The notes beneath the pieces were generated by a model that worked only from the letters and a program-made list of their open reading frames with translations, searched no databases and was not told the DNA's origin. From Patescibacteria group bacterium (GTDB lineage Bacteria > Patescibacteriota > Patescibacteriia > Patescibacteriales > UBA12465), in NCBI GenBank assembly GCA_028687275.1, contig JAQUAK010000002.1, positions 6,102 through 70,101 on the forward strand: 64,000 bases of DNA. Direction: 5' to 3'. Shown here in pieces: positions 48,348-58,258 of this stretch (position 1 is its first letter; each line of letters begins with the position of its first letter). A program made the translations under genes and the position numbers.

Positions 48348-48421
48348 GGATCGGTAGCTCAGTTGGTTAGAGCGCTGCCCTGTCACGGCAGAGGTCGCGG
48401 GTTCGAGTCCCGTCCGTTCCG
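48348..48421 (+). tRNA. tRNA-Asp (GUC), integration target
   Basis: Anticodon stem ctgcc/ggcag, loop ctGTCac and T arm gcggg-ttcgagt-cccgt. The acceptor has one U-U mismatch (ggatcgg/ccgttcc). Confidence 0.85.
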
Positions 48422-49584
48422 CATTCACACAAAACAGAGTCAATTCTCTGTTTTTTGTTATTTTCTGGGAGTAAATGCGTAATTGGAGCAGGAAGCAAAC
48501 CCGCCATCCCTTCTCTTTCTTGAAGCCTTGTGACCTTATTGTGTCCTAAATCTTCATCCAGGACATTTACTGATGTTTGAAGCGTGGCAAAATCAATATG
48601 ACAATATATCATTGTAGTCCGAATATCAGAGTGTCCCAGCAAGCTTTTAACTACTACTGGATTAACACCTCTTTGTATTAAGCGAGAAGCAAAAGTATGT
48701 CTCAAGGGATGCCAACTAATTCTTTTTATTCCAGCTCTATCGCAGATTCTGAATAGCTCATTTCTACAAATATCATTTCTGATATTCAATCCTAACTTGT
48801 ATTGAAACACAAACCCTCTTTCTTTTCTCTCGCTAAGCAGGGCGTAGTATAGACCATTACTTAAAGGAATAACACGATATTTATTGCTCTTAGGTGGACC
48901 CACTTCATCTTTCTTGTAGATGGATCTTTTAACAGTTAGCACTCTTCTTGTGAAATCTATATCTTCCCATTTTAAGCCTCGAAGCTCGCCTAATCTTAAT
49001 CCGGTCTTCAGCGCCGTTAGAATCATTAATTTCCAAAATCCGGTCGCACTCTCTAGTAAAGCCTCACTTTCTTCAGGAGAAAGGAAAATAAATGAGCTAG
49101 GAGGAGTTTTTAACTGCTTTATTTTAGGCACCTTGCTTAATATGTCCCACTCTTTCGCTGTGTTCAGACAAGTTCTTAACACTGTTAAATGATTATTAAT
49201 GGTTTTATTGGATAATCCCTTTTTACTTACAAAATTAACATACTCTCCTATCGATAGAGGGCTAATTTTATCTAGCCTCTTATTTCCAAAGAATGGGAGA
49301 AGATGTTTATTAAAGATATAATATTTCCCTCTAATTTCAGAAACTTTATTATTATTCTTTACATAAATATTAAACCATTTCTCTGCAAATTCTGATAATT
49401 TTGGTATTTCTGCTACTACTTCCTCACTTTTGCCTATATCTTCTCCAGTGGCCAATTTTCGGCGTAATAAAGCCTCGTAGGCCTTCGCCCCTTCTTTAGC
49501 ATTATCTGGACTCACCTTTCTATATCTCTGATTATCGTGAGTGATGTCCACATACCATCTATGTCCTCGACGTTTTATACTCAT
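48367..49584 (-). CDS. Tyrosine recombinase / phage-type integrase
   Basis: Catalytic pattern TGLRLGELRGL, HPLRHTFAS and LGHSDIRTTMIYCH. The 3' end of the ORF reads through the antisense of tRNA-Asp. Confidence 0.9.
   Translation of the reverse strand: MSIKRRGHRWYVDITHDNQRYRKVSPDNAKEGAKAYEALLRRKLATGEDIGKSEEVVAEIPKLSEFAEKWFNIYVKNNNKVSEIRGKYYIFNKHLLPFFGNKRLDKISPLSIGEYVNFVSKKGLSNKTINNHLTVLRTCLNTAKEWDILSKVPKIKQLKTPPSSFIFLSPEESEALLESATGFWKLMILTALKTGLRLGELRGLKWEDIDFTRRVLTVKRSIYKKDEVGPPKSNKYRVIPLSNGLYYALLSERKERGFVFQYKLGLNIRNDICRNELFRICDRAGIKRISWHPLRHTFASRLIQRGVNPVVVKSLLGHSDIRTTMIYCHIDFATLQTSVNVLDEDLGHNKVTRLQEREGMAGLLPAPITHLLPENNKKQRIDSVLCECGTDGTRTRDLCRDRAAL
48400..48422 (+). repeat. attL-type direct repeat (tRNA-Asp 3' end)
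   Basis: Identical to 55266-55288. Confidence 0.9.
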
Positions 49585-49797: not shown

Positions 49798-50800
49798 GTT
49801 AGTTGTTAAAGGGCAATACAGGCAGTAACCGATATTAACGGCTACCCGGACTATATTACCTTATCATTATTTAATAATGAATAAAATGGTTACGTTGTAA
49901 TATAGTTTTGCCAAACAAAAAAGGTTGCTATTAAAGTAAAAACAAAAAGCTATATAACGTAACTTCTTATTTTCATCCTAATAACAACCTCTACCTAGGT
50001 AAGTCCATAGAGGAGAACCTAGATCATTAAAATTGCTTCTCATGAAGTAATAGCAATAGGCATACATGTGGTACATGCTGGGGTATTGCTATCATTTCGA
50101 ATGAATATATTGTTAATGTACTTATATTATACCTTGTCCACTCATTGCTAGTCAAATTTAATCTAAAGACACTAGCAACGATGTAAAGCAGTTGCAGTGT
50201 TTCACTGGTCAATCCAGAGGGATAAGAGGGATCATGCGAGGGATCACTTTTTTTGTCTTTTTAGCTTACATTAAATAATAAATGTAATTATCGAGGAAGC
50301 TAGATGTCGCAAAATGCATACGTATATTGTTACCATTTATGCCCCCGGAGGGGGCACAATTGTGCCATTGTGACACAATTATTAATGTGGTTATGTCTAT
50401 TAGTTGGAAACGGGTAGTCAACCGCTCTGCCTCATGCCCTTTCTATTAAAAACCCCTTCTAGAAATAAAGGTAGTGGGAGCTTCAGAAAAGGAACTTTAT
50501 ACCTCTTAGATGTTACCCTCTATATTTAGGGTGAATTTGAAAACATTATCGGCACTGTCATATATTCACAAATACTTTTGTGTATTGATAAGTAATGAAT
50601 AGCTTGGTATTATATAAATACAATTGAATTGGCCTAAACCAGCTGTTTAGCTGGCATGGTCTAAAAACTGTACAAACATGAAGATGGCTTTCCATCTGGT
50701 ATTTGTTTGTGCAGTCAATGCTCGAAAGGGTGTTGGACATCGCAAGATGTCGCCAGTATGGGAAGCTTTTTTTGATTTCCAAACTGAACACTAACAATAT

Positions 50801-51001
50801 ATGAATAATTCAAACAAAAAACATTGGGGCTACGGAAAAATATCATTAATATTTCTACTACTGGGAGCTATTAAAATAAATATTCTCCCTGTTATGGGAG
50901 TAATATGGGATCTATTCTTTGATATTTTAATAACCATGGGATTAATATCAGGTATATTATGGATCATTGAGAAAATAAAGAAAGCAAAAATGAAAAAATG
51001 A
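50801..51001 (+). CDS. Small membrane protein (66 aa, 2 TM)
   Basis: First ORF of the plus-strand island block. Its stop at 50999-51001 lies one nt before the next ATG at 51003, consistent with translational coupling. Confidence 0.5.
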   Translation: MNNSNKKHWGYGKISLIFLLLGAIKINILPVMGVIWDLFFDILITMGLISGILWIIEKIKKAKMKK

Positions 51002-51002
51002 T

Positions 51003-51215
51003 ATGAGAATAACAGACAAAACCAAAGAAGACGAAGGTAAAGGATATCAACTTTTGAAATTAGACGAGTCAAATAGTAATTACTCTCCGGGAGCAAATAC
51101 CAATTGGGAAAACCTGATTAAAAGCAAAATTTTTATAGTTCTTGGAAATATCCTTTTTTGGATATTTTTTATTTGGCATTTTTATAACAGTCTAACTTTC
51201 AATATTTTTGAGTAG
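51003..51215 (+). CDS. Small membrane protein (70 aa, C-terminal TM)
   Basis: Coupled to the preceding ORF. Polar N-terminus followed by FIVLGNILFWIFFIWHF. Confidence 0.5.
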   Translation: MRITDKTKEDEGKGYQLLKLDESNSNYSPGANTNWENLIKSKIFIVLGNILFWIFFIWHFYNSLTFNIFE

Positions 51216-51283
51216 GTAGACACAAAATAATATCATAACATTACAATTACCGTACTTAGATAAATAATGATAACATTCTTGAA

Positions 51284-51295
51284 TATTCGCGAATA
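51284..51295. promoter_or_regulatory. 12-bp perfect palindrome overlapping a -35-like hexamer upstream of the OLD gene
   Basis: tattcgcgaata directly follows ttgaat (51279-51284). tataat-like sequence lies downstream. Confidence 0.4.
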
Positions 51296-51322
51296 AAAGA
51301 GTATTATGTATATATAATATAG

Positions 51323-53134
51323 ATGATTAAATATATGAAATATACAAAATTTATAATAAATAATTTCAAAGGAATAGAAAGTCTCACGTTAGATTTTGAC
51401 AATCAAATAAAATACAAAATCTTTACATTTGTTGGACTAAATGAAAGTGGAAAAACAACCATACTTGAAGCTATAGATTTTTTACAAAAAGATATAAAAG
51501 AAAAAGACCGGCATAAATTAATTCCAAAAAAAGATAAAACTAATTTTAATGACGTCATCTCCGTTAAGGCTACCATTAAACTAGAGGACGACGACGAAAT
51601 AGCTATAAAAAAATACGCCGATAAAGAAAAGTTCATCCTAGAAAAGACCATAAAGGAATTTACAATAGAAAAAAAGTACATTTACAAAGGGTCAAAGTTT
51701 ATTAAAAAGGAATACATTTGGGATATTAGCCTTATTGGCAAAAAGAAAAATAGCGCCAAAACTAGCAAACTATCATATGATGATAAATTAGACCGAAGAA
51801 GTACAATAGAAGATTACATAGAAGATCAATTGTTACCTCCTATAATATACTATCCAAATTTCTCAGTTAATTTTCCAAATAAAATATATTTGCAAGAGCG
51901 AGAAGGAGAATCTAAAGAGCAAGAATTTTATCGTAACATGGTCCAGGATGTTCTAGATTCGTTAAACAACAATCTAACCATAGAAGAACATATAATCAGC
52001 AGAATGAATAGCGAGTCAGATGAAGACAAAGAGGCTCTCGAGTCAGTCTTGATTGAATTGGGGTCAAAAATTACTGACACCACCTTAAAGTCATGGGAAG
52101 AAATATTTAGAAAAACAGAAATAAAAAGGGAGATAACCATAAAAGATGGTATAGAAGGAGATCCTGGAGATGAAAGATATTTTTTAGAAATTAAACTCAA
52201 ACAAGGTTCTCAGAAATATGCAATTGAAGAGTTAAGCCTTGGATTTAGGTGGTTTTTTGCTTTTTTATTATTTACAGAGTTTAGGAAACATAGAATAAAA
52301 GATAAAGGAGAAATTCTATTTCTTTTGGATGAACCGGCGTCTAATTTGCATTCAACGGTACAGGGCAGATTATTAAATATGTTCCGAGATATTATCAGTA
52401 AAAGTAAACTCATTTATACCACGCATAGTCATCATCTTATTAATCCAGAATGGCTGGAAGGAGCTTACATAATAAAAAATAGTGGTTTAGGGGACTACGA
52501 AGATGTTAATTTAGATCCTGAAAATACCAAAGTAGATGCAATCCCATATAAAAGATTTGTGGTCAATTTCCCGGGACAAAAACATTACTTCAAACCAATA
52601 TTAGATAGCCTAGATTACAAGCCTAGCAGTTTAGAGATGGTCCCCGACATTATTATTGTTGAGGGTAAAAACGACTTTTATGCTTTTAAGTATATCTATG
52701 AAGTAATTATGCAAAAAAAGGAGGCTTCTCTTCATTTTTATCCGGGAAACGGGGCTGGAAAGAATGATCAAGTTATTAGATTATATAATTCTTGGGGGCG
52801 CAAACTATTGGTATTTATGGATGGAGATAAAGCAGGAAGAGACGCAAAAGAAAAGTATAACGAGGAGATTGGCGTCATTGTAAAAGACAGGGTGTATACT
52901 TTGTTTGATATTAAAAAAGAATGGAAAGATAAGGCTACTGAAGATTTATTTTCCCCAAAAGAGCAATTAAGGTTAATACAAGCAATAGACCCTAATTGTA
53001 AAAAAGTTACTAAAACAAAAATTAATAATGCAATCCAAAATTTATTATTCCTAAGACAAAAGGTAGATATAAATAAAACCACGATTGCCAGATTCGAAAA
53101 AATATTTGATTTTCTGTCAAAAAAATTAATATAA
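51323..53134 (+). CDS. OLD-family nuclease (ABC-type ATPase plus TOPRIM)
   Basis: MKYTKFIINNFKGI, Walker A GLNESGKTT, signature-like LSLGFRW, Walker B ILFLLDEPASNLH and H-loop TTHSHH. TOPRIM Glu in IIIVEGKNDFYAF and DxD in FMDGDKAGRD. An alternative start is at 51335. Confidence 0.85.
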   Translation: MIKYMKYTKFIINNFKGIESLTLDFDNQIKYKIFTFVGLNESGKTTILEAIDFLQKDIKEKDRHKLIPKKDKTNFNDVISVKATIKLEDDDEIAIKKYADKEKFILEKTIKEFTIEKKYIYKGSKFIKKEYIWDISLIGKKKNSAKTSKLSYDDKLDRRSTIEDYIEDQLLPPIIYYPNFSVNFPNKIYLQEREGESKEQEFYRNMVQDVLDSLNNNLTIEEHIISRMNSESDEDKEALESVLIELGSKITDTTLKSWEEIFRKTEIKREITIKDGIEGDPGDERYFLEIKLKQGSQKYAIEELSLGFRWFFAFLLFTEFRKHRIKDKGEILFLLDEPASNLHSTVQGRLLNMFRDIISKSKLIYTTHSHHLINPEWLEGAYIIKNSGLGDYEDVNLDPENTKVDAIPYKRFVVNFPGQKHYFKPILDSLDYKPSSLEMVPDIIIVEGKNDFYAFKYIYEVIMQKKEASLHFYPGNGAGKNDQVIRLYNSWGRKLLVFMDGDKAGRDAKEKYNEEIGVIVKDRVYTLFDIKKEWKDKATEDLFSPKEQLRLIQAIDPNCKKVTKTKINNAIQNLLFLRQKVDINKTTIARFEKIFDFLSKKLI

Positions 53135-53274
53135 TATAGATTATTTGTTCTCGATAATAGAGAAAAGGTTAATGGAATAACTACAAATTATCAAGAAAGC
53201 GTTATTAGCTAAATTTCGGTAGCAGTTTTTGCTGTTGCTGTGTGGTTTTAATTAAGCTTTAAGATATTTAATTT

Positions 53275-54108
53275 ATGATTGTTATTGATGAAATTTTTTA
53301 CTTTACGACAGAACAAGCCTCTCCTTTTATTAGTAATGTGGATTGGGGCTCGCTGTTAAGCGCTTTTGTCGGCGCATTTTTATCTATTCTGTTCTGGACC
53401 TATATAGAATTCCTGAGGGGCAGGAAGATAAAAAAAGATAATATAGCTTATATCGAAAAATATTTAATTGTAAATAGTGAAAAACTTATACAGGCAAAAC
53501 AAACAATTGAAAAATTTATCGAAGACAGATTAAAAAAGACTCTAGCTGACATAGAAAAAGATGGAATAGAAGAAATTTATTCCATCCATAGATCATTTTT
53601 TCCTTTATTTGAGGCCGGATTCATTGACGCTGGCATCATGAAGATTCGAACTGGTTCAACTTATATAGACAATCAACTCCTTGTGGTCTATAACAATGTT
53701 AATGATTTTTCATCTGCTATTATTGATTTACGAGAACAATTAACTTCCACGTTTGAATTAAACGAAAAAATGGCTATGCAAAAAGTAAACTCGCCAAGAG
53801 CACAAGGGGCTATAATGAGAGATAATTTGAAAGCATTTATAAAGTTTGCAGAAGATGATTTTTTAGAAAAAAATATAAAAATACATCTAAAGAATCTCAC
53901 ACAAACAAGATTGGCCCTTATCAAATATAATAAAATTGGAGGATTTCGTTGGCAAGTTAAATTTGCTCCTCGCTGGAAATTCTTTTTTTTCAGCAATAAA
54001 AAATACAAAGAATATTGCGATTCAAAATTTAAGGTGATTGATCAATATTTTGAAAAAGAAACAGAAGAAGAAATACAAAAAATTCTCAAAAACATGGAAG
54101 CGTCCTAA
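53275..54108 (+). CDS. Hypothetical protein, N-terminal TM helix plus helical domain
   Basis: 277-aa ORF downstream of the OLD gene, with the TM helix LLSAFVGAFLSILFWTYIEF. No family recognised. Confidence 0.55.
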   Translation: MIVIDEIFYFTTEQASPFISNVDWGSLLSAFVGAFLSILFWTYIEFLRGRKIKKDNIAYIEKYLIVNSEKLIQAKQTIEKFIEDRLKKTLADIEKDGIEEIYSIHRSFFPLFEAGFIDAGIMKIRTGSTYIDNQLLVVYNNVNDFSSAIIDLREQLTSTFELNEKMAMQKVNSPRAQGAIMRDNLKAFIKFAEDDFLEKNIKIHLKNLTQTRLALIKYNKIGGFRWQVKFAPRWKFFFFSNKKYKEYCDSKFKVIDQYFEKETEEEIQKILKNMEAS

Positions 54109-54211
54109 ATAATAATTACCACCCCGCACTGCAACAAGTATAATTTAACCACGCCATATTTATAAATTTAATATAACTTGGTTGACTTGAACTTTAATTA
54201 ATATTCAATAT

Positions 54212-55072
54212 ATGACACAAGCAAAAAACATCCAGAATAAAAGAACGAAGTTCATGAATAATTTTACTTCTGATACTTTATTAATTGCAATAATAACAGG
54301 AGTGGGATATCTTTCTGCTTTTGCCTACAAATTTGCTTATTTAAGTCATTTTGATGTGCCAGTCTTTTTTGTTGAAATTAATTTAAGTACTATTTTAGCA
54401 ATCACTTCTGTTGAGTTTTTTGTTATGCTATATTTAGCATTATTTATTAATGATGCAAGATCTTGGGAAATAAAGAACAATTTGCTTAATCTTATCAAAA
54501 ATTATGGTCATTTAATATTTTCCTTTATAGTAACATCCGTATTGGCTTATCTCTATGTCTACTCAAGTGCAGATATAATATTATTCCCGCCAATGTTACT
54601 TATATTGATTTGCTTATTTATTTTATTCATCATACGACAAAAGGAATTAACCAAGGGTACTAGAAAACATAAACCTAATATACTGCTTTCTGAATCAAGA
54701 AAAATTCTTGGACCATTATTATTTCAGTGTATTTTAATTTCAATACTTGCCGTAATGGCCTGTTATGTGGCTGGAGGTTTTAATGCAAGAAACTCTACCA
54801 AATATTTAGTTTCTAATACCAATCCATCAATATTTCTAATATCAAGTTATCAAGATAGCTTCATTGTCGCGACCTATATTAAAGATAAGAAAACTTTTGA
54901 TAATATTACGTTAATAAACAAAGATCAAATTTCTGATAAAAATATGACATTCTCTGATATGGAGATTGGGCCATTAAACAGTAAAGACAATTTACGATGG
55001 AAAGAATATAGAAAATCAATATATTCCTGGTTTTCACAATATTTTCATAAAACTAAAGCAAATGCTTTATAA
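54212..55072 (+). CDS. Hypothetical polytopic membrane protein (about 5 TM) with C-terminal soluble domain
   Basis: 286-aa ORF, the last gene of the island. No family recognised. Confidence 0.55.
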   Translation: MTQAKNIQNKRTKFMNNFTSDTLLIAIITGVGYLSAFAYKFAYLSHFDVPVFFVEINLSTILAITSVEFFVMLYLALFINDARSWEIKNNLLNLIKNYGHLIFSFIVTSVLAYLYVYSSADIILFPPMLLILICLFILFIIRQKELTKGTRKHKPNILLSESRKILGPLLFQCILISILAVMACYVAGGFNARNSTKYLVSNTNPSIFLISSYQDSFIVATYIKDKKTFDNITLINKDQISDKNMTFSDMEIGPLNSKDNLRWKEYRKSIYSWFSQYFHKTKANAL

Positions 55073-55265
55073 AATAAATCCTACCTACCCCTCCCTGTGT
55101 TGCCCCAGTCTTAATTTGTGACCGTATTGTGTCCGAGAAGTGATAGAATTTAAGATATTAAGTTTTCTTTTAACAACACTTGAGAAATAATATTCCCCTT
55201 GTATTACCGATGTAATTAGATTATTCCATTATATCTATTGAAGTATAGCGATTTAGCTCCTTTTA

Positions 55266-55288
55266 GGTTCGAGTCCCGTCCGTTCCGC
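55266..55288 (+). repeat. attR-type direct repeat (copy of tRNA-Asp 3' end)
   Basis: Identical to 48400-48422. No tRNA body lies upstream of it. Confidence 0.9.
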
Positions 55289-55334
55289 TATAACAAAAAT
55301 CGCCTTTTAGGCGGTTTTTTGTTATGCTAATATT

Positions 55335-56525: not shown

Positions 56526-56612
56526 GGAGAGGTGCCAGAGTGGTCGAATGGAACAGTCTTGAAAACTGTCGTCGGTGCAAGCCGACCGTGGGTTCGAATC
56601 CCACCCTCTCCG
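56526..56612 (+). tRNA. tRNA-Ser (UGA)
   Basis: Acceptor ggagagg/cctctcc, anticodon stem acagt/actgt, loop ctTGAaa, long variable arm and T arm gtggg-ttcgaat-cccac. Confidence 0.88.
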
Positions 56613-56686
56613 CATATGAAAAATAGTCCTAAATTAGGGCTATTTTTTGATAGGGAGTTTATTGCTTTGGAACGACATGGTATAAT
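56600..56686 (+). repeat. Boundary module C (tRNA-Ser 3' end, terminator hairpin, TGnTATAAT promoter)
   Basis: cccaccctctccgca, then aaaaatagtcctaaattagggctatttttt, then gagtttattgctttggaacgacatggtataat. About 80 percent identical by eye to module F. Confidence 0.8.
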
Positions 56687-56716: not shown

Positions 56717-57109
56717 ATGAATATTATAAGTGACAATACTCCAGATTTAATATCGCCTATTTTTTCGCATATTATAGAAATAGGAGTTAACCCTTATATT
56801 GTTTTTGTTTTGTTAGTGCTTGTCATTTTTTCATTATATTTTTTATTATTTAGCTTGTTGGCTTATAGGGGTAATTTCAATTTATTGAAAAAAGATTTTA
56901 AAAAAATGCCACTTAAAAACAAGCGAGACTGGTTTATTTTTTTATTTGTTGGTGTTCTTATGGCTTTTATTATGTTTTATCAAATGCTTGATTCATTCTA
57001 CAGTCCAGCTGATATAGTCAGATACCGCGTTTCCTCTATTGATAAGGCCGTTGCATCTTTTGGGGATAAAATGGTCCTGTTCTTAGAAAAAATTGGCATA
57101 CTTAGATAA
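56717..57109 (+). CDS. Hypothetical membrane protein (130 aa, 2-3 TM), cassette 1
   Basis: ORF lying between module C and repeat D. No family recognised. Confidence 0.5.
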   Translation: MNIISDNTPDLISPIFSHIIEIGVNPYIVFVLLVLVIFSLYFLLFSLLAYRGNFNLLKKDFKKMPLKNKRDWFIFLFVGVLMAFIMFYQMLDSFYSPADIVRYRVSSIDKAVASFGDKMVLFLEKIGILR

Positions 57110-57125
57110 TTTGTTGGCAATAACC

Positions 57126-57153
57126 GTTCCAACTACGTCCCACCCTCCCCGCA
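57126..57153 (+). repeat. 28-bp repeat D (near-copy of repeat B; degenerate tRNA-Ser 3' end)
   Basis: gttccaactacgtcccaccctccccgca, followed by the hairpin aataagcta-ttac-tagcttatt. Confidence 0.85.
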
Positions 57154-57194: not shown

Positions 57195-58258
57195 TTCAAT
57201 AAGTAAGTGCAACACTTTGATATAATTAAAGATATTATCAAAGTGTATGAATTATCAACATCTAAGTATTGAGGAGCGGGAAAAGCTTCAGTTAATGCTC
57301 TGGCAAAAACAATCAGTTAGAGTTATAGCCAAAGAGCTAAATCGGAGCCCCTCTTCTATATCAAGGGAAATAAATAAGAACCGTCGCTCTGACGGCAAAA
57401 GATTGTATATTCCTAGGGCTGCCCATGAAAGAGCCATCACTAAACGCTCAAGTAGAGGAGAAAGAAGACTGGTTCAGAACGAGAGACTGCGAGATTATGT
57501 AATTAAACATCTCAAATTAGGCTGGTCACCAGAGCAAATAGCCGCTAAAGCAGAAGAAATGACGAGTACTAAAATATCCCATGAAGCTATATATCAATAC
57601 ATCTATGCTCAAGTACACAGAAATGGCTATGGCTATATTAGGCCAGGCTGTGAAGACCTCAGGCCATATTTAGCTAGACGTAAGAAAAGAAGAGTACAAA
57701 AAGGATTAAGGGCTAGTTATCGCACAGATAAAGGCTCATTGCCATCAATTGATAGTCGTCCTCAGGAAGTTGAAGAGAGAAAAAGCATTGGTCATTGGGA
57801 AGACGATCTAATAGTATCTAAAGAATCTAAACAGGCGCTAAAGACGGTTAATGAACGAGTATCCGGAATAGTATTTATTGAAAAAGTGAACAACAAAACT
57901 ATTTCCGAATCTAACCGCAGTGTGGCTAAGCGATTGCAAGAAATACCGCTGGAATACAGGAAGACTTTAACCAGGGACAGAGGAAGTGAGAATCTCGGAC
58001 ACGTGGAGCTAGAACAAGAACTGGGAATTCTCTGCTATTTTGCTCATGCCTATCATTCCTGGGAAAGAGGCTCCAACGAGAACTTAAATGGCCTTATTCG
58101 TCGTTTTTTACCTAAAGGAACCGACTTCAGAACAGTATCAGCAGAGCAAATTAAACGAATTGAGTACTTAATTAACTCTAGACCAAGGAAAAGACTTGGC
58201 TGGAAGACCCCTTATGAGGTATTCTATGAAAAGACAGGTGTTGCACTTCTAACTTGAA
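57195..58258 (+). mobile_element. IS30-family insertion sequence
   Basis: Terminal inverted repeats ttcaataagtaagtgcaacac (57195-57215) and gtgttgcacttctaacttgaa (58238-58258) enclose a single IS30-type transposase. Confidence 0.85.
57247..58257 (+). CDS. IS30-family transposase
   Basis: N-terminal HTH (LSIEEREKLQLMLWQKQSVRVIAKELNRSPSSISREINKN) and a DDE region (HWEDDLI ... TRDRGSEN ... NENLNGLIRRFLPKG). Confidence 0.9.
   Translation: MNYQHLSIEEREKLQLMLWQKQSVRVIAKELNRSPSSISREINKNRRSDGKRLYIPRAAHERAITKRSSRGERRLVQNERLRDYVIKHLKLGWSPEQIAAKAEEMTSTKISHEAIYQYIYAQVHRNGYGYIRPGCEDLRPYLARRKKRRVQKGLRASYRTDKGSLPSIDSRPQEVEERKSIGHWEDDLIVSKESKQALKTVNERVSGIVFIEKVNNKTISESNRSVAKRLQEIPLEYRKTLTRDRGSENLGHVELEQELGILCYFAHAYHSWERGSNENLNGLIRRFLPKGTDFRTVSAEQIKRIEYLINSRPRKRLGWKTPYEVFYEKTGVALLT

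Follow-up and report, generated by a model that had tools for sequence, protein, structure and literature searches.

An OLD-family-type protein on a 6.9-kb integrative island of Patescibacteria, probably one of several independent cargo genes

Background

Characterised Class 1 proteins of the OLD family act alone. The anticodon nuclease (ACNase) PrrC, in which an ABC-ATPase-like domain is fused to the ACNase domain, is embedded in the EcoprrI Type Ic restriction-modification (R-M) locus, with prrC placed between hsdS and hsdR. Class 1 OLD genes are described as not near other defence genes, and TOPRIM domains as working by two-metal catalysis (PMC10568477). In P2 Old, ATP hydrolysis licenses the cutting of tRNA anticodon stems (PMC12445682), and Vibrio cholerae (Vc) OLD nicks DNA and blocks phage replication, for which both the ATPase and the TOPRIM nuclease residues are needed (PMC12392090). 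The R-M-like operon MADS requires MAD6-8, with MAD3 and MAD4 as accessory parts (bioRxiv 10.1101/2023.03.30.534895). Defence hotspots are also known from prophages and satellites, e.g. P2 old/tin and P4 (PMC9122126). Here we describe an integrative island of 6,866 bp from a Patescibacteria (Candidate Phyla Radiation, CPR) metagenome-assembled genome (MAG), which lies in a stretch of 64,000 nucleotides (GCA_028687275.1, contig JAQUAK010000002.1, positions 6,102 to 70,101), called the window below. The island carries a gene for an OLD-family-type ATPase-nuclease together with genes for four small predicted membrane proteins, p66, p70, p277 and p286.

An earlier note on this DNA, made from the letters alone, had proposed that the OLD protein and its four neighbours form one defence or abortive-infection module. 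A nuclease wired to membrane effectors would, if true, be a new defence architecture; it would add a fifth class of OLD context, the first one in CPR bacteria. Such a system is not supported, and the comparative evidence speaks against it. The reading that we prefer, with a probability of about 0.65, is that the OLD protein would be a stand-alone, ATP-gated TOPRIM nuclease protecting carriers of the island from phages, and the cargo around it is probably a mosaic of independent genes, not one machine.

Results

Neighbourhoods of the OLD gene and of its island partners

We collected 80 genome loci (±8 kb) with OLD relatives and 7 contigs with the closest relatives, about 87 in total. In these loci, tblastn (E<=1) of p66, p70, p277 and p286 within 6-8 kb of the OLD gene recovered only a duplicate of the window island, and profile hidden Markov models, one built from 60 sequences of the p277 family and one for p286, recovered none when all open reading frames (ORFs) of at least 50 aa were scanned without filters. 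From the partner side, homologs of OLD, p286, p66 or p70 were found within 7 kb of p277-family genes in 0 of 5 sampled loci, and an OLD homolog was found on 0 of 1 contigs with a p286 homolog. Membrane proteins in general are not enriched beside OLD genes. Across all phyla, the next gene on the same strand encodes transmembrane (TM) segments in 9 of 42 cases, against 124 of 434 in the background, while in CPR genomes alone TM genes amount to 22 of 90 near OLD and 75 of 238 far from it (odds ratio 0.70, p 0.23). The proposal of one system made of OLD and four membrane partners is not supported on these grounds, since the partners do not co-occur elsewhere, from either side, and membrane neighbours are not enriched. 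The earlier note had itself named a lack of conserved gene neighbourhood as a reason to give the proposal up, and this lack is what was found, as far as the comparative sampling reaches.

All-against-all clustering of the ±4 neighbours in 78 loci gave no neighbour family present in more than 13 of them, which is the context of a single-gene Class 1 OLD with no conserved partner. The known partners of other OLD proteins, which the earlier note had described as lacking at this locus, are indeed absent: the seven island proteins include no UvrD-like helicase, reverse transcriptase (RT) or separate AriB. The best reading is that the OLD protein is a single-polypeptide nuclease, Class 1 by context, because it has no conserved protein partner. 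The arrangement on the island was counted on the same side, as the OLD gene ends in front of a terminator-like hairpin and the genes stand 107, 140 and 103 nt apart (p70-OLD, OLD-p277 and p277-p286, respectively), which speaks for separate transcription units.

The neighbours that do recur in the 78 loci are mostly R-M genes, with HsdS in 13 loci (immediately upstream in 10), HsdM in 12 and HsdR in 10; other N6/N4 methylases, small HTH_17 proteins, RhuM, YhcG and Fic were also found repeatedly. An R-M subunit lies at most four ORFs away in 18 of the 78 loci, 14 of them Type I, and five loci have the order HsdM-HsdS-OLD-HsdR. For example, the closest relatives of the window protein (60-61% identity; two loci) belong to a tight type II operon, Mtase-RE_BsaWI-OLD-Mtase, whose genes overlap or nearly abut. 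Two further loci contain a putative type III R-M system, composed of a member of a methylase cluster and an 826-aa protein, and another relative is found among Cas4-like, GmrSD and DpnII genes. No hsd homologs were found within the 64-kb window. This repeated embedding in R-M operons, together with the likeness of the two protein halves to MAD3 and MAD4 (see below), suggests that the clade may be an R-M-associated OLD subgroup.

One side observation concerns a Shapirobacteria MAG, in which a match to the Rfam group I intron model (RF00028, 60.9 bits; L038, 7386-7601, plus strand) precedes the OLD homolog by about 400 nt.

Domains and family of the OLD protein

The ORF opens with a 603-aa reading, and we place the start at M5 (599 aa) because the family alignment and the gene calls of NCBI and Logan suggest so. 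All the motifs quoted in the earlier note were recovered, i.e., GLNESGKTT (aa 38-46), LLDEPASNLH (334-343), TTHSHH (366-371), VEGKND (446-451) and DGDKAGRD (500-507). Among 32 homologs, Walker A (G43-K44-T45), Walker B (D336-E337), the signature-like S305-L306-G307 and the H-loop residue H368 are invariant, and so are the TOPRIM residues E447-G448 and D500, while D502 is conserved in at least 90%. The Pfam AAA_15 model is matched over its full length (E 4.8e-20, aa 5-373), as expected of an ABC-type ATPase, and the ATPase assignment is certain. The TOPRIM domain, judged from its motifs, is probable: the window protein scores 21.7 bits for Pfam OLD-like_TOPRIM against a cut-off of 23.2 (3e-4), and 8 of 32 members match this model. 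The complete OLD architecture that had been claimed is thus strong in its ATPase part, but the TOPRIM call is weaker than was implied, being below the Pfam cut-off.

Profiles of defence systems were matched by both halves. The N-terminal half matches PADLOC mad3 (2e-11) and, weakly, NCBIfam MADS3, as well as many generic OLD-ABC ATPase models in PADLOC (among them AriA, AbiLi, Old, PtuA, NsnB and GajA); the PADLOC Old model is matched by the window protein mainly in this ATPase, with the best stretch at aa 5-111. The C-terminal domain, taken in isolation, matches PADLOC mad4 (E 2.5e-6), and that of one family member matches positions 386-478 of the PADLOC Old profile, within its TOPRIM part (E 0.0023). 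Against PDB sequences, the family profile weakly matched the retron Ec83 ATPase, Thermus scotoductus (Ts) OLD (6P74, E 2.5e-7) and PtuA, all through ATPase motifs only, and the profile of the C-terminal domain alone had no match even at E<=10.

A word-index search returned more than 2,900 family matches, and the best 120 of these are full-length proteins of about 590-620 aa with 44-63% identity. In a genome scan, OLD relatives turned up in 328 of 185,579 species-level genomes, which belong to Patescibacteria, Bacteroidota, Proteobacteria, Cyanobacteria and Acidobacteriota and include one Woesearchaeota MAG. No match was found in cultured phages, and plasmids gave only "AAA family ATPase" matches of about 23% identity. 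From these comparisons we conclude that the predicted protein is of OLD-family type and comes from a divergent, uncharacterised clade.

Borders and mobility of the island

The features of the island are listed in Table 1. Its order is attL, integrase, excisionase, LOOT RNA, five cargo ORFs and attR, and its borders are the two identical copies of a 23-nt direct repeat, GGTTCGAGTCCCGTCCGTTCCGC, which form the att cores. A stretch of about 0.8 kb without ORFs separates the minus-strand integrase and excisionase genes from the five plus-strand genes.

Table 1 Features of the island and its borders (positions in the window)
Feature	Position	Strand	Evidence
tRNA-Asp (GTC), integration target	48348..48422	+	ARAGORN; Rfam tRNA 68.8 bits
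attL core, last 23 nt of tRNA-Asp	48400-48422	+	repeat family D2
Tyrosine integrase, ORF 3' end overlapping the tRNA	48367..49584	-	Pfam Phage_integrase 4.2e-30, Phage_int_SAM_3
Excisionase-like HTH_17 protein, 64 aa	49603..49797	-	Pfam HTH_17 9.1e-14
LOOT RNA (Rfam RF03000), four hairpins	50631..50751	+	83.2 bits vs gathering score 46.4, model 1-121
p66, predicted 2-TM micro-protein, 66 aa, first ORF after LOOT, orphan	50801..51001	+	ORF; hydropathy
p70, predicted 1-TM micro-protein, 70 aa, orphan	51003..51215	+	ORF; hydropathy
OLD-family-type ABC ATPase with probable TOPRIM domain, 599 aa from M5	51335..53134 (ORF opens 51323, 603 aa)	+	
Terminator-like hairpin with a U-rich tail, downstream of the OLD gene	53217..53240	+	-15.1 kcal/mol, z -3.8
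p277, N-terminal TM anchor and helical domain, 277 aa	53275..54108	+	
p286, 5 TM segments and beta-rich C-terminal domain, 286 aa	54212..55072	+	
attR core, same sequence as the 3' end of tRNA-Asp	55266..55288	+	repeat search; empty-site junction in L097
Original tRNA terminator hairpin, 3' of the attR core	about 55300-55325		

To find an empty site, the exact flanking host proteins were looked up in public assemblies. A contig from sample SRR9030901 (L097, 1-110) contains the body of tRNA-Asp, the att core and the right flank, with the island absent, and represents an unoccupied attB. It was compared with window positions 48378-48422 and 55289 onward, and the flanking proteins are identical; a second contig of the same sample terminates within tRNA-Asp. 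Because of this empty site, the 6,866-bp element is taken as a discrete polymorphic insertion in otherwise identical strains. With a tyrosine integrase, borders that both carry the tRNA 3' end as a direct repeat, and an empty site in a related genome, it has all the features of a tRNA-targeting integrative island, and the earlier statement that the OLD gene is cargo of an integrase-bearing island holds, the island being truly mobile.

The exact five-gene set is known from one island, as the other contig carrying it is a duplicate of the window island, and a search with the exact excisionase for sister islands bearing other cargo returned the same island only. Small HTH_17 genes similar to the excisionase were found near OLD homologs in 4 other loci. 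The number of promoter-like sites, 28 against an expected 30.8, does not exceed chance in DNA as AT-rich as this.

Further repeats were noticed in and beside the island. A 19-nt direct repeat, TTGTGACC[T/G]TATTGTGTCC (family D11), is present at 48528-48546 (plus strand) and 55116-55134, just inside the island ends, at distances to the att cores of about 105 and 130 nt; the two copies are possibly arm-type sites of the integrase or excisionase. Beyond the island, the 3' end of tRNA-Ser (56526-56613), cccaccctctccgca, is imperfectly repeated about 540 nt downstream (57137-57153). A 130-aa ORF with hydrophobic stretches (56717-57109) lies between the tRNA-Ser repeats, and a putative transposase-like 336-aa ORF (57247-58257) lies beyond them. 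This adjoining region may be a remnant of a second tRNA-targeted insertion.

LOOT RNA and the cargo slot

The LOOT RNA sits 50 nt upstream of p66, between the divergent integrase/excisionase module and the cargo genes. It covers the full length of the Rfam model above the curated gathering threshold, and its minimum free energy fold (-51.8 kcal/mol, z -6.1) reproduces the four hairpins. Apart from tRNA, it is the only Rfam RNA family found on the island. LOOT is also present in four other CPR loci with OLD genes, i.e., L013 (2678-2798), L032 (5568-5684), L046 (15895-16017, minus strand) and L094 (1867-1982), and it was found in none of about 60 non-CPR OLD loci, the p277 loci or the p286 locus. 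The distance from LOOT to OLD varies from 0.6 to 6 kb, and in L046 the two are on opposite strands, so that LOOT and OLD seem to be linked through the element rather than by adjacency.

In IMG/VR, LOOT was searched by a pattern scan, our own covariance-model filter and confirmation with Rfam, and nine viral or proviral contigs with scores of 62-82 bits were found. Most of the LOOT contigs and islands share one layout, in which LOOT is preceded by a recombinase or core module of the other strand and heads one to three variable genes on its own strand. The upstream gene is a large serine recombinase in five viral contigs, and in several of them convergent genes for TerL (GpA_ATPase), a ParB-N6/N4 methylase and a terS-like helix-turn-helix protein follow the variable genes. 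The variable genes often encode small membrane or secreted proteins. For example, the gene after LOOT in L032 encodes Lipoprotein_Ltp domains, and a known superinfection-exclusion protein of a prophage belongs to this family.

In temperate phages of CPR bacteria and the islands derived from them, LOOT appears to be the marker of a variable cargo slot close to the integrase. A T-run is found 13-21 nt past the 3' end of the Rfam model in 12 of 14 LOOT copies (at about 50766-50772 in the window), and the next ORF on the same strand usually starts 50-70 nt after LOOT in these 14 copies. Because of the T-runs and the close downstream ORFs, LOOT looks like a terminated small RNA, leader or attenuator that heads the cargo slot. 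A literature search found no paper discussing the function of LOOT.

The region at 50.6-55.1 kb is the variable cargo slot of this 6.9-kb island. The island looks phage-derived, and it is a remnant or satellite-like derivative, since the integrase/excisionase-LOOT-cargo part of the phage layout is present without the phage body. No gene relics from other LOOT islands were found in its ORF-free kilobase.

The four membrane-protein genes

The earlier description of five contiguous plus-strand genes on a tRNA-Asp island was reproduced at every coordinate. The tight coupling of p66 and p70 is also real, as the p66 stop codon (TGA, 50999-51001) ends 1 nt before the p70 ATG. Hydropathy agrees with the membrane nature given to the four neighbours, with 2, 1, 1 and 5 TM segments in p66, p70, p277 and p286, respectively, and predicts no TM segment in the 603-aa protein. 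For p286 an alternative start exists at M15 (54254). We regard p277 and p286 as real genes because homologs exist, while p66 and p70, for which no homolog was found in any fetched locus, are orphans and predictions only.

None of the four proteins has a significant match in Pfam, NCBIfam, PADLOC or PHROGs. The best library match of p66 is a sub-threshold DUF5326, and p286 matches PADLOC NsnC at chance level (E 0.0044, 14.6 bits). By the word-index search alone p277 and p286 also looked like orphans. An exhaustive HMMER scan revealed a p277 family of 136 representative clusters, whose full-length members measure about 255-290 aa and share 20-40% identity. A TM anchor at the N-terminus is joined to a helical domain of about 230 aa, and the conserved stretches include FFPLF and TGSGY[IL]DN. 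The earlier view that the neighbours cannot be placed in any family is therefore right for annotated families, but p277 has a family of its own, whose members carry no Pfam or PADLOC annotation. AlphaFold2 models built on 2-sequence alignments are unusable (pLDDT 41.9 for p277 and 47.0 for p286).

The five sampled p277-family loci were obtained with a 10-sequence alignment. Large serine recombinases in convergent orientation adjoin the gene in two of them, and among the other neighbours are a PLD-SNF2 helicase, an ImmA-type peptidase, a NUDIX protein and a LlaMI restriction endonuclease (RE_LlaMI). Such surroundings are those of a solitary gene carried as cargo by a mobile element or in a defence island, and the family itself is a candidate for a single-gene mobile-element function. 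The p286 family is rare, with a single homolog (34% identity), which lies on a 4-kb contig and carries a weak and unconfirmed "TfpB" tag (PF27470). Neither INPHARED phages nor PLSDB plasmids gave a tblastn match to p277 or p286, and IMG/VR scans for both families gave no relatives. By position, p286, p66 and p70 hold the slot that is taken by small membrane, secreted or Ltp-type exclusion proteins after LOOT in related phages and islands.

As a separate observation, the p286 homolog is encoded directly downstream of a 788-aa protein (L001, 658-3024, plus strand) that has no Pfam or PHROG match.

Discussion

In the reading preferred here, a dimeric ABC module that binds and hydrolyses ATP would control a TOPRIM active site of the two-metal kind, which in an infected cell would cleave either the DNA of the phage or tRNA of the host. 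For the membrane proteins, separate surface or exclusion "moron" functions would be the most plausible, as their position suggests. Several points weigh against this picture. The TOPRIM domain is sub-threshold in Pfam and the C-terminal domain is without a PDB sequence match; small membrane ORFs do adjoin OLD in a few CPR loci (L032, L092 and L018); the absence of the partners elsewhere is compatible with a young, island-specific partnership, as the gene set has been seen once; and the sampling from the partner side comprises five p277 contexts and one p286 context. The defence role of the OLD protein, like the superinfection-exclusion or moron role of the membrane proteins, is a prediction.

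A coupled system would be a lineage-specific defence or abortive-infection unit in which OLD senses infection and the membrane proteins execute by membrane disruption, or the reverse. It draws on the five co-oriented, contiguous genes that fill the plus-strand cargo slot together with LOOT, on the coupling of p66 and p70, on the membrane nature of all four partners and on the small membrane ORFs near OLD in two CPR loci. Yet the four proteins are never seen with OLD in other loci, from either side, and membrane neighbours are not enriched there; the closest OLD relatives are in R-M operons and the p277 family is solitary elsewhere; a terminator-like hairpin and spacers of more than 100 nt interrupt the gene row; and the partners have no PADLOC match except the chance-level NsnC. 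We regard such a system as very improbable. The same holds for its co-regulated form, a unit of LOOT and the five genes, so young or fast-evolving as to be visible in this island alone, in which OLD physically works with the membrane proteins, to which we give scarcely any weight.

The R-M genes around the relatives raise another explanation, namely that the OLD protein is an R-M accessory or guard, like PrrC, PARIS or a fused MAD3+MAD4; it would depend on or monitor an R-M system encoded elsewhere in this genome and fire when that system is inhibited. The 18 of 78 loci with a nearby R-M subunit, 14 of them Type I and five with OLD between HsdS and HsdR, the Mtase-RE_BsaWI-OLD-Mtase operon of the closest relatives and the mad3 and mad4 matches of the two halves all agree with it. 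About three quarters of the family loci, this island included, are nevertheless without a nearby R-M gene, the window has no hsd homologs, the mandatory MAD6-8 are absent, and R-M loci and defence islands draw unrelated defence genes anyway, so we hold a guard role to be unlikely. Still less probable, in our estimate, is a role outside defence, either addiction-type stabilisation of the island or a part in DNA maintenance or the cell cycle, like that reported for Cran1, an archaeal ATPase of the OLD family (PMC12796447). Not every OLD-family ATPase is defensive (PMC12796447), the family has an archaeal member and no phage phenotype is known for the clade; against this, the gene is dispensable, as an identical strain lacks the island, and the patchy distribution and the neighbourhoods with R-M genes, recombinases and defence islands are typical of defence cargo.

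With the stand-alone reading, the island is a clean polymorphic mini-island with a Class-1-type OLD in Patescibacteria, whose phage defence is little studied. The clade of the OLD protein is large and uncharacterised, resembles a fused MAD3+MAD4 and is found repeatedly within Type I, II and putative Type III R-M operons. LOOT, an orphan Rfam motif, gains a genomic role as the apparent marker of a CPR phage cargo slot, and could aid in finding prophages and defence cargo in CPR genomes. By-products worth following up are LOOT as a cargo-slot marker, the OLD clade embedded in R-M operons, and p277 as a solitary family of mobile-element cargo.

Comparison with known systems

Some systems that contain an OLD-type ATPase were tried as assignments and rejected. 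For Gabija (Class 2 OLD), the seven island proteins have no helicase match, and the GajA matches are weak and restricted to the ATPase. For a retron (Class 3 OLD), there is no RT match in the seven proteins and no msr-msd RNA among the island RNAs. Menshen consists of NsnA (ParB-DUF262), NsnB (AAA_15 and DUF3696) and NsnC (an inactive PIN domain and a nuclease) (PMC12065111). The island has no ParB/DUF262 protein, and its 603-aa protein is without DUF3696 and has a canonical DE Walker B. The NsnB match is that of a generic OLD-ABC ATPase, and the protein with the chance-level NsnC match, p286, is a 5-TM protein.

PARIS (AriA and AriB, Class 4 OLD, and its fusions) is similar in coupling an AAA_15-type ATPase to a TOPRIM nuclease and in being carried often by prophages or satellites and sometimes within R-M loci. 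An assignment to PARIS or to a PARIS fusion was rejected, as no DUF4435/AriB match is listed for the window protein or the 32 members and the AriA match concerns the generic ATPase only. MADS is alike in that the ATPase half resembles MAD3 and the predicted TOPRIM half resembles MAD4, and both are tied to methylation or restriction loci. Here, however, the halves are fused, MAD6-8, a methylase and a specificity subunit are absent from the island, and no other PADLOC mad match was found among the island proteins. PrrC shares the fusion of an ABC-ATPase-like domain with a nuclease, and five loci of the OLD family occupy the position of prrC between hsdS and hsdR, whereas the predicted nuclease is a TOPRIM domain instead of an ACNase domain and the copy in the window has no R-M neighbour.

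The closest counterpart by context is Class 1 OLD (P2 Old, Ts OLD 6P74 and Vc OLD), which likewise has no conserved partner gene, and the carriage on a mobile element beside an integrase recalls old on prophage P2. The difference is that only remote sequence similarity exists, with the PDB matches confined to ATPase motifs, that the clade described here is often found in R-M operons, and that its activity is predicted from sequence. Compared with the P2 and P4 hotspots, the slot here is headed by LOOT, a conserved structured RNA, and occurs in CPR phages and in an island without phage structural genes; what they have in common is a short, highly variable slot by the integration module, with defence nucleases and small surface proteins.

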